From the NCBI GenBank assembly GCA_043775355.1, contig JAYVSL010000025.1:224-64223 (forward strand): a stretch of 64,000 nt of DNA, given 5' to 3'. This DNA is from Planctomycetota bacterium (GTDB taxonomy: Bacteria > Planctomycetota > UBA11346). Position numbers and translations under genes: made by a program. The notes under the pieces were generated by a model. The model saw only the letters and a list, made by a program, of their open reading frames with translations. It was not told the DNA's origin and did no database searches. Positions 734 to 8,716 of the stretch are shown here, one piece after another. Within the stretch, counting starts at the first letter, position 1, and each line of letters opens with the position of its first letter.

Positions 734-1363
734 TCAGGTACCAATCTGAACCATGTTTGCATACGGGATCGCTAGGCCACCAATGTTGAGCACCAACTCG
801 CCAGCGGTGTCATAGGCAACATTAGTCACTTGGCCTTTGCCCACATTTCCATCGTCCAATTTATAACCCACGGTCTTGCCGAGCAAATTGCCCGCCATGT
901 TGGCGAGGTAGTCGGGGTTGTTGTGCTGTGGCAACACCTGTTTGACGTTATCGATGGGGTAATCGTGGTCAGCGATGGTGACGTAGACCGTTTCCTTAAT
1001 TTGCCGGAAAGAACTGACTTCGCCCTTCACGCTGCCAAATCCAACATCGGGATTTAGACCCTGATCGATCAACTTTTGTTTTTCGCCAGCAGAGATCATC
1101 GACTGCTGGACGTTGACTGACTTACCCATTAATTGCTGCGCCCACGACAAGTCACCGCGGAATTTGGTGAACTGAGTATTTGCCAAGTCCTGCAATTTCT
1201 GCATGTTTTCGACGATTTTAGAAGTCTCTTGTGGGGCCAGCGGATCCTGATGCGCCAGTTCACTCAACATGATTTTCAGGAAGTCCGCATTGCGGAACGC
1301 TGATGCCTGCGTGTCCCCGGCAGATGCTGACGATTGAGTGCTCGAATTCGTTGCGCTGATCAT
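734..1363 (-). CDS. flgD: flagellar hook assembly (capping) protein FlgD-like
   Basis: 209-aa ORF. FLKIMLSELAHQDPLAPQE matches the FlgD N-terminal motif (FLxLLxxQLxxQDPLxP). It is followed by beta-rich GK(S/T)V segments as in the FlgD C-terminal part. Confidence 0.7.
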   Translation of the reverse strand: MISATNSSTQSSASAGDTQASAFRNADFLKIMLSELAHQDPLAPQETSKIVENMQKLQDLANTQFTKFRGDLSWAQQLMGKSVNVQQSMISAGEKQKLIDQGLNPDVGFGSVKGEVSSFRQIKETVYVTIADHDYPIDNVKQVLPQHNNPDYLANMAGNLLGKTVGYKLDDGNVGKGQVTNVAYDTAGELVLNIGGLAIPYANMVQIGT

Positions 1364-1536: not shown

Positions 1537-2301
1537 ATGATCCTCGGACTCATTAGCGATATTCACGGCAACCTCTCGGCACTGAATCAAGTGATTGCCG
1601 ACATGGAAGAAAACGGCGCCGAAAAAGTCATCTGCCTCGGGGACGTGGTCGGCTATGGACCTTACCCTGGGGAATGCCTCGACTTAGTGCGCCGCTGCGG
1701 AGCGGTACTGATGGGCAATCACGAAGAAGCGCTGCTTTTTGGCGCGGAAAATTTCAATCCCAGAGCCAAACGTGCGATCGATTGGACCCGCGATCACTTG
1801 AAGACCGCCGGCGACGAAGTGACTCGTAAGAACCGTTGGCAGATTTTGCAAAACTTGCAGCTCCATGCCCAAGACGGAAATTTCCTTTTCACCCACGCCA
1901 GCCCACGCCAGCCCACACGCGAATACGTGATGCCACGCGACGTCGCGAATCCGGCTAAAATGCAGGAAATTTTCGCACTCATCGGGCATGTCTGTTTCGT
2001 CGGTCACACGCATATTCCCGGCGTTTTCCTTGAAGATCTGACCTTTACTCCGCCCAGCGATTTATGGGGCCACACCTATTTCGTTGAACCCGGTGAAAAA
2101 GCCCTGGTGAATATCGGTTCGGTTGGCCAGCCTCGCGACGGTGATACGCGCGCGTCTTATTGTCTACTCGATACCGAAGTCTCCGCCCCACGAGTCATCT
2201 TTCGCCGGGTCGAATACGACGTCGAATCGACCGCCAAAGCCATTGAAGCGAATAGCTATTTAGACAACTACCTTGCCGAACGCTTGCGGGTTGGCCGCTG
2301 A
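1537..2301 (+). CDS. metallophosphoesterase family protein (calcineurin-like phosphoesterase)
   Basis: ORF 1417-2301. Motifs SDIHGN, GDVVGYGP, GNHE and GHTH are the MPP metal-binding signature. I start at the ATG at 1537 (MILGLISDIHGN), because the 40 upstream codons are Arg/Pro-rich and unlike the family. Confidence 0.8.
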   Translation: MILGLISDIHGNLSALNQVIADMEENGAEKVICLGDVVGYGPYPGECLDLVRRCGAVLMGNHEEALLFGAENFNPRAKRAIDWTRDHLKTAGDEVTRKNRWQILQNLQLHAQDGNFLFTHASPRQPTREYVMPRDVANPAKMQEIFALIGHVCFVGHTHIPGVFLEDLTFTPPSDLWGHTYFVEPGEKALVNIGSVGQPRDGDTRASYCLLDTEVSAPRVIFRRVEYDVESTAKAIEANSYLDNYLAERLRVGR

Positions 2302-2456: not shown

Positions 2457-4544
2457 ATGGACTCGCAAGCACCGAAAAAGAGGCCCAGTGGCACGCGACT
2501 GCCACCGGTCAGCAGAACCGGCAGTGCTGCCGTGGCCCTGGGGCCAATGGTGAAAAGTAAACTCACCGAAGATCCCTTGTGGGGTTACTTCGCGATGAAT
2601 GGAAAATGGATCTGTCCTTATTGTTTGAGCGTCATCAATCGCCGTGTTGGACGTAGTCGTGATGATTCCATTACCATGCATATGGAATCCTGCCGTGGTT
2701 TCGGTAACGGCCATGGCCAGATCCAATTAGTCGAAGTCATCGCCCGCCGACAACAGTATGAAAACCTCGTTCATTTAGCTGACAGCGATCCGTCATGGCG
2801 AGTCTATGACGCATCCGGCACATGGTATTGTCCAGCCTGCCTTGACCGAATTTTGGCGGTCCGCATCCAAGGGAGTCAACTCACCAGTTTTGTGTATCAG
2901 GCCATGGCTGATCACCTCAGCAGCTGCGGATCATACCTGCGTGGTGTACGACCACAGCCCGAAGATGTCCAACGTGCACGTGATCACGCCGCTCGCTTTC
3001 CTGCGTTATTGCAGGCGCTCCAACACAATCTTCAATTTCCAGCATGGCGTTATATTGATGCGCACGGGTTATGGGTTTGCCCCTGCTGCTTGGTGCACGT
3101 GCCCCGAGTGCGCGTGCAGAATGACTCCGACTGGCCACGCGCACCTGAACAAATAACACACCATCTGCTGCGAGAATGCACGGCGTACGCCAACGATCCC
3201 AACCAAGTACAACCAGAAGCTCGGGTACGCGAATCTGCACAGTCGCTGCAGTTTTTACAGCCAACGCCTACCCATCGTACGCCGCTGCCCATTGCCGATG
3301 GCACTCGCGTTTATCGTTCCACTTCACCAGTCGTCGGCAGCGTTCCCACAGCACGTCCAGCCACCAACACGCCGACCAACTACGTACAAACACCACCAAT
3401 TGCACGCCCAGCAATTGGCCGTCAAACGCAAACACCACCCGCTTTGCCCGTCACGCATGGAACTCCGATCGTCAACCGGCGCACTGATACCACGCCCAAA
3501 GGCGCGCCTCAAGTTATCCCCGCGGCAATGCCCGCGATGAATCTATCTCAGATTCCCGTAGCTCAGCCAACAACGCCTACCGCTAAGTCACTCCCAGACG
3601 GCACGCTTTTTGGCACGCTGTCTACTAATTTTCTCGACGGCACCGCACTGGGTTCGCTTGGCGAAGCATCATCCGACATGGATGATGCGCACCACAGTGA
3701 AAACCAGTATAGCAGCGACGACCACAACCATAGCGAGCACGGTCACGGTCTCGGTTGGATGGATCACGCCGAAACCCACGCGCCAACCAATCAGCAAAAG
3801 CCAAGTGCCGAACGAACTGACATGATCAAAGCGCGTGCCGTCCAGGCCGGTTTGATGCAGAAACCGCCCGAAGTCGCCGGTTTCCATTTTGCCGCCTGTT
3901 ACGAAGCCTGCACGGATATCAGCGGTGATTTTTATCAATATATCCGCCTGCCAGATGGACGCGTCGGTTTCGCCATGGGTGATGTCAGCGGTCATGGTGT
4001 GCAAGCTGGTTTAATCATGTCGATGGCGAAAAAGACCTTTGAGATCTACGCCTCCATGGGTCTTTCGCCAGCAGAAACGCTGTCGCGCGTCAACGATGCC
4101 ATCGCTCGCGATTTGGGCGGTAAATTATTTGTCTCGATGGTGTACGCCTTGCTGGATCCAACCACTCGTACGATTACCTGGGCGCGTGCCGGACATACGC
4201 CAAGCCTACGCTACAATGCTGACGATGATAAGGTCGAAGAGATCAAACCGCCGGGCATGGTCGTCGGCATGAAGACCGGGCCCATGTTCCGTAACAGTAT
4301 TCAGGAACAGGTCACCACGGTACGCTCAGGCGACGTCATCTTGCTCTACACAGATGGCATTACCGAGACCATGAATCTGCAGCAGGAAGAATTCGACACC
4401 GAGCGCTTAGTCGAAGTCATGCGCCGCTTCGGCAGTCAAGGCGCCGAAGCTCTAGTAGCGCGCATTATGGAAATTATCCGCCACTTCCGTGGACCACAGC
4501 CACCAGCTGACGATTCCACCTTGCTGGTTTTGACGGTAGATTGA
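2457..4544 (+). CDS. SpoIIE/PP2C-family protein phosphatase (RsbU-like) with an N-terminal triple CPxC...HxxxC zinc-ribbon-like region
   Basis: 695-aa ORF. The C-terminal ~230 aa carry the SpoIIE/PPM motifs (ISGDFYQYI, GDVSGHGVQAGLIMS, LLYTDGITE, DDSTLLVL). The N-terminus has three repeats of W-x-[YF]-x4-G-x-W-x-C-P-x-C-L...H-x3-C. The middle is Pro/Thr-rich with a His/Asp patch. An alternative start is M31 (2547). Confidence 0.85.
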   Translation: MDSQAPKKRPSGTRLPPVSRTGSAAVALGPMVKSKLTEDPLWGYFAMNGKWICPYCLSVINRRVGRSRDDSITMHMESCRGFGNGHGQIQLVEVIARRQQYENLVHLADSDPSWRVYDASGTWYCPACLDRILAVRIQGSQLTSFVYQAMADHLSSCGSYLRGVRPQPEDVQRARDHAARFPALLQALQHNLQFPAWRYIDAHGLWVCPCCLVHVPRVRVQNDSDWPRAPEQITHHLLRECTAYANDPNQVQPEARVRESAQSLQFLQPTPTHRTPLPIADGTRVYRSTSPVVGSVPTARPATNTPTNYVQTPPIARPAIGRQTQTPPALPVTHGTPIVNRRTDTTPKGAPQVIPAAMPAMNLSQIPVAQPTTPTAKSLPDGTLFGTLSTNFLDGTALGSLGEASSDMDDAHHSENQYSSDDHNHSEHGHGLGWMDHAETHAPTNQQKPSAERTDMIKARAVQAGLMQKPPEVAGFHFAACYEACTDISGDFYQYIRLPDGRVGFAMGDVSGHGVQAGLIMSMAKKTFEIYASMGLSPAETLSRVNDAIARDLGGKLFVSMVYALLDPTTRTITWARAGHTPSLRYNADDDKVEEIKPPGMVVGMKTGPMFRNSIQEQVTTVRSGDVILLYTDGITETMNLQQEEFDTERLVEVMRRFGSQGAEALVARIMEIIRHFRGPQPPADDSTLLVLTVD

Positions 4545-4545
4545 C

Positions 4546-5403
4546 GTGACCATGGATCACAAGCCTGCAGCTGGTGCGCGTCCTGCGGTTGACTCCAGCA
4601 GTCGCCTCCCTATTCCTCCAACTCCTGGTTCGCAGCATACCGCGCCAGCACGGGTGGAGCATAAAGCCGTGAAATTGCAAATGGCCGCGTTGACGCACAA
4701 AGGTCGTGTGCGGAACCACAATGAAGACTCACTCTATTTCGACATCCGCGATCGCGTGATGATTGTTTGCGATGGCATGGGCGGGCACGCAGGTGGCCAC
4801 ATCGCCAGCGAACTAGCCGTGCAAGTAGTCTCTAACGGTTTGCGTCAGCTGCGACCATCTGACTGGGGCGATGAAAACCGCGTCATTGAAGCGATGAAGA
4901 GTGCGGTCTTCGGCGCCAATGATCACATCCTGAGCCGTGCCCGCGTCGACACCGGGTTGTCCGATATGGGCACCACCATTGTGGGCTTGGCCTTCATGCT
5001 CGACCGCGTCATCACCGTAAATGTCGGTGACAGTCGCATTTATCGCGTGTGCAAAGACGGCATCGAACAAGTCAGCGAAGACCACAGTTTGGTTGGTGAG
5101 CGCGTGCGCGCCGGATTACTCGATCCCGACAGCGACGAGGCCGCACTGCTCGGCAATATCGTCACGCGCGCGCTCGGCATGGAACAAGTCACCATCGATA
5201 TCACCGTTGAGGGCCTGATGATCGGCGACACGTATCTGCTGTGCAGTGACGGGCTGTCGGATCTGGTGAGCGATGACGATATGTTCGACATCGTCCAAGG
5301 CGCGGAAAGTCTTGAACAAGCCTGCGTCACGATGGTCGACTTAGCCAACCAACGCGGTGGAATCGATAACATCACCGTCGCGTTAGCACGCGCGGTCAAC
5401 TGA
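4546..5403 (+). CDS. PP2C-family Ser/Thr protein phosphatase (Stp/PrpC-like)
   Basis: Motifs THKGRVRNHNEDS, CDGMGGHAGG, LLCSDGLSD and GGIDNITV. The track start is GTG 4546, 1 nt after the upstream stop. ATG 4552 or ATG 4681 (MAALTHKG..., typical family N-terminus) are alternatives. Confidence 0.85.
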   Translation: MTMDHKPAAGARPAVDSSSRLPIPPTPGSQHTAPARVEHKAVKLQMAALTHKGRVRNHNEDSLYFDIRDRVMIVCDGMGGHAGGHIASELAVQVVSNGLRQLRPSDWGDENRVIEAMKSAVFGANDHILSRARVDTGLSDMGTTIVGLAFMLDRVITVNVGDSRIYRVCKDGIEQVSEDHSLVGERVRAGLLDPDSDEAALLGNIVTRALGMEQVTIDITVEGLMIGDTYLLCSDGLSDLVSDDDMFDIVQGAESLEQACVTMVDLANQRGGIDNITVALARAVN

Positions 5404-5424: not shown

Positions 5425-5991
5425 ATGGCAACGAGCCGACTTGATTTGGATGCGACTTCCAGCGCGCTGCTGGTCATCGATGTCCAAGAGCGCTTTCTTA
5501 AAGTCGTCCCCGCCATCGCCGCTGATCAGGAGGTTGGTCGCAACTGCCGAATCCTTCTGCAAGCAGCGGGATTATTGCACATTCCCCGATTGATAAGCGA
5601 ACAATATCCCGCCGGTCTTGGCCCCACGTTAGCGCACATCAGCGAAGCAGCGCCAGAGGTCCCTCGCTTAGCCAAGATGCACTTTAGTTGCGCCGAAGAT
5701 CCAGCGATCGCGATCGCGATCGACCAACTTGGCCGTCAGCAATTGGTCATCGCCGGCATCGAAGCCCATGTCTGCATCCTGACCACCGCAGCTGATTTGA
5801 TCTCACGTGGTTACCAAGTCGTCATCGCCGGTGACGCCATCGCGAGCCGCGAACCGAGCCACGTGACGATGGCCATCGCCGCGCTGCGCGACTTGGGAGC
5901 CCTGGTTTTACCGACGGAAACCATCGTCATGCGTTGGCAGCGCGAAGCCGGCGTCGGATGTTTCAAGGCACTCGCTCAGCTGATTCGTTAA
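5425..5991 (+). CDS. isochorismatase-family cysteine hydrolase
   Basis: 188 aa. ALLVIDVQERF near the N-terminus and the IAGIEAHVCI segment are typical of isochorismatase/YcaC-like hydrolases. Confidence 0.8.
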   Translation: MATSRLDLDATSSALLVIDVQERFLKVVPAIAADQEVGRNCRILLQAAGLLHIPRLISEQYPAGLGPTLAHISEAAPEVPRLAKMHFSCAEDPAIAIAIDQLGRQQLVIAGIEAHVCILTTAADLISRGYQVVIAGDAIASREPSHVTMAIAALRDLGALVLPTETIVMRWQREAGVGCFKALAQLIR

Positions 5992-6140
5992 ATGTCTGAT
6001 GTCCGATGTCCGATGTCCGATGTCGTTTTATGCGACGTTGGGCTTAGAGCAGGGATCACTGAACTTAACGGCCCCGTGATGTCGGCGACGAAAATTCTCC
6101 GACATCAGACATCGGACATCGGACATCGGACATTAGACAT
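5992..6140. repeat. inverted arrays of the heptamer ATGTCCG flanking a 74-bp spacer (element copy 1)
   Basis: 5992-6025 reads ATGTCTG ATGTCCG ATGTCCG ATGTCCG ATGTCG. 6100-6140 is the reverse-complement array (CGACATC AGACATC GGACATC GGACATC GGACAT TAGACAT). It fills the whole spacer between two convergent stop codons. Confidence 0.9.
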
Positions 6141-8365: not shown

Positions 8366-8716
8366 ATGAAATCAGGCCTTATCATTACTGAATCGCGCAT
8401 CGAAGACGTCCTGGTGCTCAAGCTCAGCGGCTACCTCGATGGCCATACCTTTGTTGAATTGGAAAAATCCCTCGACACCGCCATCAAAGGCGGATCGCAC
8501 CGCATCGTCATCGACTTAGCAGAGCTCACTTACATCGCCAGTGCCGGAGTCGGCGTCTTTATCAACTCACAACACCAAGTGCGCAAACACGGCGGTAGCC
8601 TGCAGTTGGTCAACCCAGCCCCAAGCGTACGCGAAGTGTTCGGCATCCTCGGTCTTGAAGTGATTTTCACTATTCACCAGACGGTGGATCAAGGCGTTCG
8701 CGCCGCGCGCAAATAA
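8366..8716 (+). CDS. STAS-domain anti-sigma-factor antagonist (SpoIIAA/RsbV-like)
   Basis: 116 aa. VLKLSGYLDGHTFVELEKSL...IDLAELTYIASAGVGVFI is the STAS fold signature, including the phosphorylatable Ser context (YIASAG). Confidence 0.85.
   Translation: MKSGLIITESRIEDVLVLKLSGYLDGHTFVELEKSLDTAIKGGSHRIVIDLAELTYIASAGVGVFINSQHQVRKHGGSLQLVNPAPSVREVFGILGLEVIFTIHQTVDQGVRAARK

Follow-up and report, generated by a model that had tools for sequence, protein, structure and literature searches.

Introduction

What kind of input governs a SpoIIE-class phosphatase whose N-terminal region carries cysteine- and histidine-bearing repeats instead of the regulatory domains familiar from its relatives? The question is raised by a gene at 2457..4544 on the forward strand of a 64,000-nucleotide stretch of Planctomycetota DNA, hereafter the window (NCBI GenBank assembly GCA_043775355.1, contig JAYVSL010000025.1, positions 224 to 64,223). 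Phosphatases of the SpoIIE/RsbU class set off stress responses and developmental switches, and their N-terminal domain determines what is sensed. The known inputs of the class, namely the four-helix dimerisation domain RsbU-N and the PAS, GAF, REC, and HAMP domains, connect to the phosphatase through a helical coiled-coil linker, and a framework for the control of PPM enzymes by N-terminal domains has been set out together with a rigid coiled-coil linker model for RsbU, RsbP, and RsbZ (PMC12143880). This catalogue of inputs underlies the current helical-linker model of signal transfer.

The window gene encodes a protein of 695 residues, a soluble SpoIIE/RsbU-class PPM phosphatase with an N-terminal triple-repeat region, a linker, and a C-terminal catalytic domain; the MDxRxPK start is common to its orthologues. 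A transmembrane segment is absent, the top 19-residue Kyte-Doolittle window reaching 1.23, and as no hydrophobic stretch is long enough to span a membrane, the protein is most likely cytoplasmic. The gene is present in DNA runs and contigs from several metagenomic studies of freshwater and sediment, so it is no assembly artefact; a search of RNA sequencing runs did not find it in any RNA run.

Here, we describe the N-terminal region as three tandem C2HC modules that belong to a definable family of ~70-residue repeats. We found no evidence that the domain is already known: it is found in no domain library and has no structural relative. On balance, it is probably a zinc-stabilised regulatory platform for docking or oligomerisation that controls the SpoIIE phosphatase.

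A tandem triplication with conserved putative ligands

A preliminary description, made from the DNA sequence alone, had placed three tandem CPxC...HxxxC modules in a SpoIIE-type phosphatase at 2580-3179, which corresponds to residues 42-241, and the modules were confirmed at exactly those residues. The motif instances WICPYC...HMESC, WYCPAC...HLSSC, and WVCPCC...HLLREC follow the pattern W-x-C-P-x-C-(18-24)-H-x(3-4)-C. All six-frame open reading frames (ORFs) of the window that reach 40 residues or more (78,874 residues in total) were queried with the expression W.CP.C.{15,30}H.{3,4}C, which returned no matches besides these three; when the first 270 residues were shuffled 100,000 times, at least one motif match arose in only 2 of the shuffled sequences. 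The alignment of the three modules possesses common columns P, W, G, W, C, P, C, L, R, H, and C, with P, W, G, and W preceding the cysteine knuckle and L following it. Pairwise HHalign comparisons between profiles of the three module positions, built from 140 homologues, gave probabilities of 99.5-99.7% and E values of 4e-23 to 4e-25 over 61-65 columns. The motif matches, the shared columns, and the profile comparisons together establish a true tandem triplication with a repeat of ~70 residues.

The putative metal ligands were mapped across 140 homologous N-terminal units. Module 1 (2580..2693, residues 42-79) offers C53, C56, H75, and C79, which are present in 140, 139, 140, and 139 units, respectively; module 2 (2796..2927, residues 114-157) offers C125, C128, H153, and C157 (121, 111, 135, and 129 units); and module 3 (3045..3179, residues 197-241) offers C208, C211, H236, and C241 (139, 133, 134, and 138 units). 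All three lie on the forward strand. These 12 positions rank among the best-conserved columns of the alignment, and the complete array, CCHC/CCHC/CCHC, is present in 108 of the 140 units. Poor conservation of the Cys and His positions among homologues had been named beforehand as an observation that would refute the proposal; it is clearly not seen, and the description of three C2HC units with nearly invariant ligands stands. Aside from the ligands, the residues conserved family-wide are mostly Trp, Leu, Gly, and Pro, joined by Asp118, Ala229, and Ala234. From the alignment, we read these as likely core or second-shell positions with a structural role.

The modules do not retain their ligands equally. 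Module 1 is essentially always intact; module 2 is the degenerating module, with ligands lost in ~30 of the 140 homologues. Usually at least two ligands are gone together, as in SSHC (12 units), where both knuckle cysteines are replaced, in CSHN, CTHL, and CSHL, where one knuckle cysteine and the final cysteine are replaced, and in SSVD. The joint loss of several ligands is expected from the decay of one shared metal site.

The fate of module 2 also bears on a rival reading, in which Zn(Cys3His) sites would themselves be the sensor. Oxidants, electrophiles, or zinc limitation would then free the metal, partly unfold the domain, and switch the phosphatase, making the region a thiol-redox or metal-availability switch. 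Hsp33 and the ZAS anti-sigma factors of the RsrA type are known zinc-thiolate switches, and PknG is regulated by a rubredoxin-like domain. The occurrence of nine conserved putative ligand cysteines in a predicted cytoplasmic signalling protein is consistent with such a role, as are the resemblance of the CPxC knuckle to the rubredoxin knuckle, where weak PDB profile matches fall (E 0.04-0.6), and the stress and partner-switch phosphatases that make up the closest solved or profiled relatives of the output domain. However, the module 2 ligands, mostly both knuckle cysteines, are lost while the rest of the module is kept, which suggests that at least this site serves structure and not sensing, and the gene neighbourhood contains nothing redox-specific. 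We regard a switch of this kind as unlikely. Less likely still, in our estimation, is the bolder proposal that the triple Cys3His array constitutes an unrecognised class of cytoplasmic sensor acting as a reversible metal-thiolate switch, in which metal loss would free conserved motifs in the linker and toggle the phosphatase. If true, control would not work by coiled-coil dimerisation, the mechanism currently held to be general among these enzymes, and the enzyme would respond to oxidants, electrophiles, or zinc/iron availability by means so far seen only in Planctomycetota.

Predicted fold of the triple module

A structural model was obtained with AlphaFold2 for residues 30-265 together with 69 homologues. 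The mean predicted local distance difference test score (pLDDT) was 96.8, with 233 of 236 residues above 90, and the predicted template modelling score (pTM) was 0.84; a single module (module 2), modelled with 48 diverse modules as its alignment, reached a pLDDT of 91.9. In each predicted module, two short strands are joined by a turn that holds the CPxC cysteines. A helix follows, with the His in its last turn and the last Cys one to three residues past its end. Each module is thereby predicted to be a C2H2-like beta-beta-alpha finger with C2HC ligands. Long helices at residues 92-110 and 168-191 join the modules in the model. The folded domain, M1-M2-M3 plus the two connecting helices, spans residues 30-265 (2544..3251, forward strand) and forms a single block in the 140 homologues. 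The high pTM suggests that the three fingers and the two connecting helices make up one rigid, compact domain, rather than beads on a string. Each finger probably binds a single metal ion in a structural role, Zn(II) held through Cys3His being the most likely.

In one respect the preliminary description is corrected by this model. The modules had been called zinc-ribbon-like; a zinc ribbon possesses two CxxC knuckles, each in a beta-hairpin, and only one CPxC knuckle is present per module. In the model, the second ligand pair, H-x3-4-C, sits at the end of a helix with the His borne on the helix itself, and because of this placement the modules are not zinc ribbons, the predicted topology being beta-beta-alpha.

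Comparison with named domain families

In agreement with the preliminary description, which had not recognised the module as a named family, searches of Pfam, NCBIfam, and PDB sequences with residues 1-270, with single modules, and with a profile of 49 modules identified no named family that covers the module; only sub-threshold matches to the knuckle were returned. NCBIfam gave no match over the N-terminal region. The best profile match among PDB sequences had an E value of 0.015; matches there were to PHD, RING, and rubredoxin proteins and lay at the W-x-CPxC knuckle. When the 49 diverse modules were compared with Pfam, the commonest weak matches were to the Sec23/24 knuckle (15 modules) and to DUF1677 (6 modules), all below threshold. 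Literature searches that paired SpoIIE with zinc, C2HC, or Planctomycetes turned up no account of the domain.

The DUF1677 matches raise the possibility that the module is a distant bacterial branch of this plant family (PF07911) and hence no new family at all. Scanned as a whole, the protein scores 25.6 bits against PF07911, marginally above the gathering cut-off of 25.0, and precomputed PF07911 annotations are found on most close homologues. The match spans profile positions 27-69 of 94, that is, 43 of the 94 positions, and module 1 alone; scanned singly, module 1 falls short of the cut-off at 20.8 bits, and neither module 2 nor module 3 is matched. Among the 49 diverse modules, E values below 0.1 were obtained for only 6, fewer than the 15 that match the unrelated Sec23/24 knuckle, and at the contig loci the PF07911 match is graded as faint. 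What likeness there is to this plant-specific family of unknown function consists of a borderline match at the knuckle of module 1, set against partial coverage and a majority of members left unmatched. We consider DUF1677 membership very unlikely; it would, in any case, explain nothing about function since DUF1677, which the literature mentions only in plant transcriptome lists, is itself uncharacterised.

Several features prompt comparison with nucleic-acid-binding finger arrays. In this alternative, binding to DNA or RNA would tether the phosphatase, in the manner of eukaryotic C2H2, C2HC, or BED fingers or of Ros/MucR. Fingers that bind nucleic acids typically have the beta-beta-alpha topology predicted here, and many Arg residues are invariant in the orthologous clade of the window gene (R63, R80, R97, R98, R115, and R131, with R175, R180, R198, R228, and R258 in addition). 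The BED finger family (PF02892) gives a sub-threshold match with E values of 0.05-0.1, reaching 13 bits against a cut-off of 20.6 and involving 2 of the 49 modules. However, conservation of these Arg residues does not extend beyond the clade, and the net charge of the finger domain ranges family-wide from -22 to +19 with a median of +3.5; because charge is not conserved, nucleic-acid binding was set aside as the principal explanation. Pfam, PDB, and Foldseek searches gave no significant match to a DNA-binding finger family, and the model packs the fingers into a single rigid globule (pTM 0.84) rather than a flexible array. Nucleic-acid binding is, in our judgement, highly improbable.

Phosphatase output and family architecture

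The output domain, including its N-terminal helix, occupies residues 455-695 (3819..4541, forward strand). Within it, residues 499-694 match the SpoIIE family PF07228 with an E value of 1.4e-51; the score of 175.6 bits exceeds the cut-off of 25, and the alignment takes in positions 1-191 of the 192 in the profile. The preliminary description is thus borne out in placing the modules in the input position of a SpoIIE/RsbU-type phosphatase, the order being fingers, linker, and SpoIIE. The metal-binding Asp motifs are kept as GDFY (GDxY), GDVSGHG (GDVxGHG), TDG, and DD, and D491, D509, D633, D685, and D686 are at least 90% conserved among 17 orthologues. The closest solved relatives are Rv1364c, Pseudomonas aeruginosa RssB, SiaA, and SpoIIE. 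Judged from these motifs, the phosphatase domain is intact and apparently active.

To delineate the family, residues 30-270 alone were queried by phmmer against 1.84 billion representative proteins; the search was blind to output, as this query excludes the phosphatase domain. It returned 170 matches at E<=1e-3, 117 of them at E<=1e-10, and the family comprises ~170 clusters at 50% identity. Profile searches of a 5.8-billion-protein collection, for which a full-length alignment and P0001 plus N-terminal fragments served as queries and which were not effectively output-blind, added only three further members (P0040, P0184, and P0185), all fused to SpoIIE; otherwise they returned generic SpoIIE proteins along with a small number of short pieces of close relatives. 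Wherever a record gives an organism name (three genome loci and all NCBI names of this kind among 30 representative clusters), it is a Planctomycetota metagenome-assembled genome. The family appears to be restricted to this one phylum and to be known only from metagenomes.

Tabulating outputs, as the preliminary description had suggested, revealed a SpoIIE domain in 150 of the 183 collected proteins and no other output domain among them. The SpoIIE-less proteins that were followed up proved mostly to be partial records, to have cluster mates that bear SpoIIE, or to derive from split genes that precede a SpoIIE ORF; P0072, P0094, and P0059 have no such explanation, with P0094 (295 residues) lying near a contig end. 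The finger domain is thus linked almost exclusively to SpoIIE output, and every member that looks complete has SpoIIE. Finger-only ORFs P0049 and P0060 were observed at homologous loci L010 (5001-7100) and L012 (2118-4518), where a SpoIIE-only ORF directly follows or overlaps. As candidates for stand-alone finger proteins they were rejected; these are split genes, via frameshift or assembly error.

The canonical order M1-M2-M3 is present in 133 proteins, and ~29 carry four to seven modules, mostly because the middle module is duplicated. Between the last finger and the phosphatase lie 35 to 400 residues (median 176). One protein of 1244 residues, P0144 (L009, 7001-10735), possesses ~740 N-terminal residues without a Pfam match ahead of its fingers and SpoIIE domain.

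The linker region

Between the finger domain and the phosphatase lies a low-complexity Pro/Thr/Ala/Ser linker (residues 266-454; 3252..3818, forward strand) that is poorly conserved, variable in length, and marked by gapped alignment columns. Counted over residues 266-455, its composition includes 27 T and 25 P among 190 residues. The linker of ~200 residues rich in Pro, Thr, and Gln in the preliminary description is real here as a Pro/Thr-rich segment, though such length and composition typify the clade of the window gene only, given the 35-400 residues seen family-wide.

Within this otherwise variable segment, two short motifs are conserved. The first, TLFGxLxxxFLxxTxLG (residues 381-402; 3597..3662, forward strand), retains L384, F385, L388, L393, and T396 invariantly among 17 orthologues, down to ~50% overall identity. 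In the second, LxWMD (residues 432-439; 3750..3773, forward strand), W434 is invariant and M435 and D436 are nearly so in orthologues. Both motifs could serve in docking, whether within the molecule or to a partner.

A His/Asp patch, DDAHHSENQYSSDDHNHSEHGHG (residues 409-431; 3681..3749, forward strand), had also been pointed out. It is real, and it is limited to the closest relatives: the patch is present here and in P0003 only, with other orthologues showing gaps or acidic segments at the same position. It was rejected as a conserved metal site on the grounds that it is not conserved.

Proposed function

On balance, then, we favour a reading in which the finger domain is probably the regulatory input part of the enzyme, a zinc-stabilised platform for docking or oligomerisation. 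Each finger would hold one structural Zn(II) through Cys3His. The domain so stabilised would bind a partner protein, or the conserved short motifs of its own linker, and such binding would set whether the PPM domains reach their active, metal-loaded state. This form of control would be analogous to the binding of RsbT to the N-terminal domain of RsbU (PMC12143880). The structural-looking conserved residues, taken together with the wide charge range, the varying module number, and the occurrence of paralogues, suggest diverging partner surfaces on a fixed scaffold.

Four observations weigh against this proposal. First, Foldseek queried with the single-module model returned no zinc-finger match, and the beta-beta-alpha assignment consequently rests on predicted secondary structure and ligand placement. 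Second, neither a switch kinase (HATPase_c_2) nor a sigma-70 family occurs among the 25 of 55 Pfam families listed for the other ORFs of the window. Third, distant paralogues are found in unrelated contexts, where the gene context is not kept. Fourth, in the clade of the window gene, ~190 low-complexity residues stand between the finger domain and the phosphatase; a disordered linker of such length implies that no rigid coiled coil connects the two, a poor fit to the model for RsbU, RsbP, and RsbZ (PMC12143880). Coupling may instead proceed via tethering or via the conserved linker motifs.

Gene neighbourhood

The genes flanking the phosphatase gene also encode phosphatases. Upstream on the same strand, 1537..2301 encodes a calcineurin-like metallophosphoesterase of 254 residues (Pfam Metallophos and Metallophos_2), found at the same place in L004, L005, L007, L008, and L012. 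Downstream, an ORF at 4546..5403 on the forward strand encodes a Stp1/IreP-like PP2C phosphatase (NCBIfam Stp1_PP2C_phos, E 1.5e-63, aligned from residue 50). This ORF opens with GTG at 4546, one nucleotide past the stop codon of the SpoIIE gene. Orthologues of the PP2C protein have 239-243 residues and are preceded by gaps of 40-230 nucleotides, and the true start is probably the ATG at 4681, giving 240 residues and leaving a spacer of 136 nucleotides. Translational coupling between the two genes is, with that start and gap, unlikely.

The core of metallophosphoesterase, finger-SpoIIE, and Stp1-like PP2C genes, all on the forward strand here, is kept in the orthologous loci L004, L005, L007, L008, L010, and L012, and across relatives whose finger regions are 33-60% identical. 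Three different types of phosphatase thus stand in a row at a conserved locus; in L010, the metallophosphoesterase ORF is truncated to 49 residues. The conservation of the flanking phosphatase genes suggests that the enzyme may work within a multi-phosphatase signalling unit.

A candidate substrate is encoded 3.8 kb downstream. The forward-strand gene at 8366..8716 specifies a STAS anti-sigma-factor antagonist (Pfam STAS, E 3.5e-21; TIGR00377, E 5e-23); a STAS gene is also near the L004 orthologue and is absent within 8 kb in L007. By analogy to other SpoIIE-class enzymes, the likely substrate would be a phosphorylated STAS-type protein.

The fourth gene of the cluster, at 5425..5991 on the forward strand, encodes an isochorismatase-family hydrolase (Pfam, E 8e-29) and occupies the same place in L004, L010, and L012. 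Past its end, a terminator scan identified inverted arrays of the heptamer ATGTCCG at 5992-6140, with stems at 6004-6025 and 6098-6123, lying between the convergent isochorismatase and pseudouridine-synthase genes. On the other side of the cluster, a FlgD-like gene (734..1363, reverse strand) is divergent, as it is in L004, L007, and L008; it stands alone, there being no other flagellar genes among the Pfam matches for the window.

In some genomes, paralogues of the finger-SpoIIE gene lie side by side. In GCA_041443025.1, two such paralogues, of 904 and 796 residues, flank a PTPS gene. Immediately downstream of the pair are genes for an extracytoplasmic function (ECF) sigma factor and a FecR/zf-HC2 anti-sigma protein, and a Hanks-type kinase is encoded close by.

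Comparison with known systems

Among small metal-binding folds, zinc ribbons and rubredoxin-like domains share the W-x-C-P-x-C knuckle with the modules, and the weak rubredoxin, Sec23/24, LapB, and RanBP matches all fall there; they differ in that the modules lack a second CxxC knuckle and carry a helix-borne H-x3-4-C as the second pair. The closer likeness in the predicted model is to classical beta-beta-alpha fingers, including C2HC variants, BED, and the bacterial Ros/MucR proteins. There, too, a C-x2-C knuckle lies between short strands, a His is in the last helix turn with the fourth ligand three to four residues on, and conserved aromatic residues precede the knuckle. Regulatory metal-thiolate domains, such as ZAS/RsrA and the rubredoxin domain of PknG, resemble the present case in placing a small Cys-rich site upstream of a signalling output. 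Their folds and ligand patterns (HxxxCxxC, two CxxCG, and C4) are different, and no homology to the modules was detected.

Given that PPM phosphatases are known to carry many N-terminal domains, a new input domain is unsurprising in principle. The family described here adds one that is predicted to fold with confidence, that has putative metal sites, and whose linkers to the phosphatase differ widely in length, some being long and disordered. It also offers a first entry point to signalling in Planctomycetota, a phylum in which little work has been done on partner-switching. As a repeat family of ~70 residues with three to seven repeats, it is fit for a Pfam/InterPro entry, and the soluble 236-residue fragment is tractable for structure and metal analysis.

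The most direct relatives remain the systems built on the same enzyme. RsbU, RsbP, RsbZ, SpoIIE, SiaA, Rv1364c, and RssB share with the window protein the PF07228 catalytic domain, the Asp motifs, and the order of an N-terminal regulatory region followed by the phosphatase, and, as in RsbU-type systems, a STAS-type candidate substrate is encoded nearby. The difference lies in the input and in the joint: the input here is a triple C2HC finger domain, and the joint, in the clade of the window gene, is a stretch of ~190 low-complexity residues. If the finger domain does regulate the enzyme, the family would provide a test of how general the coiled-coil model is.

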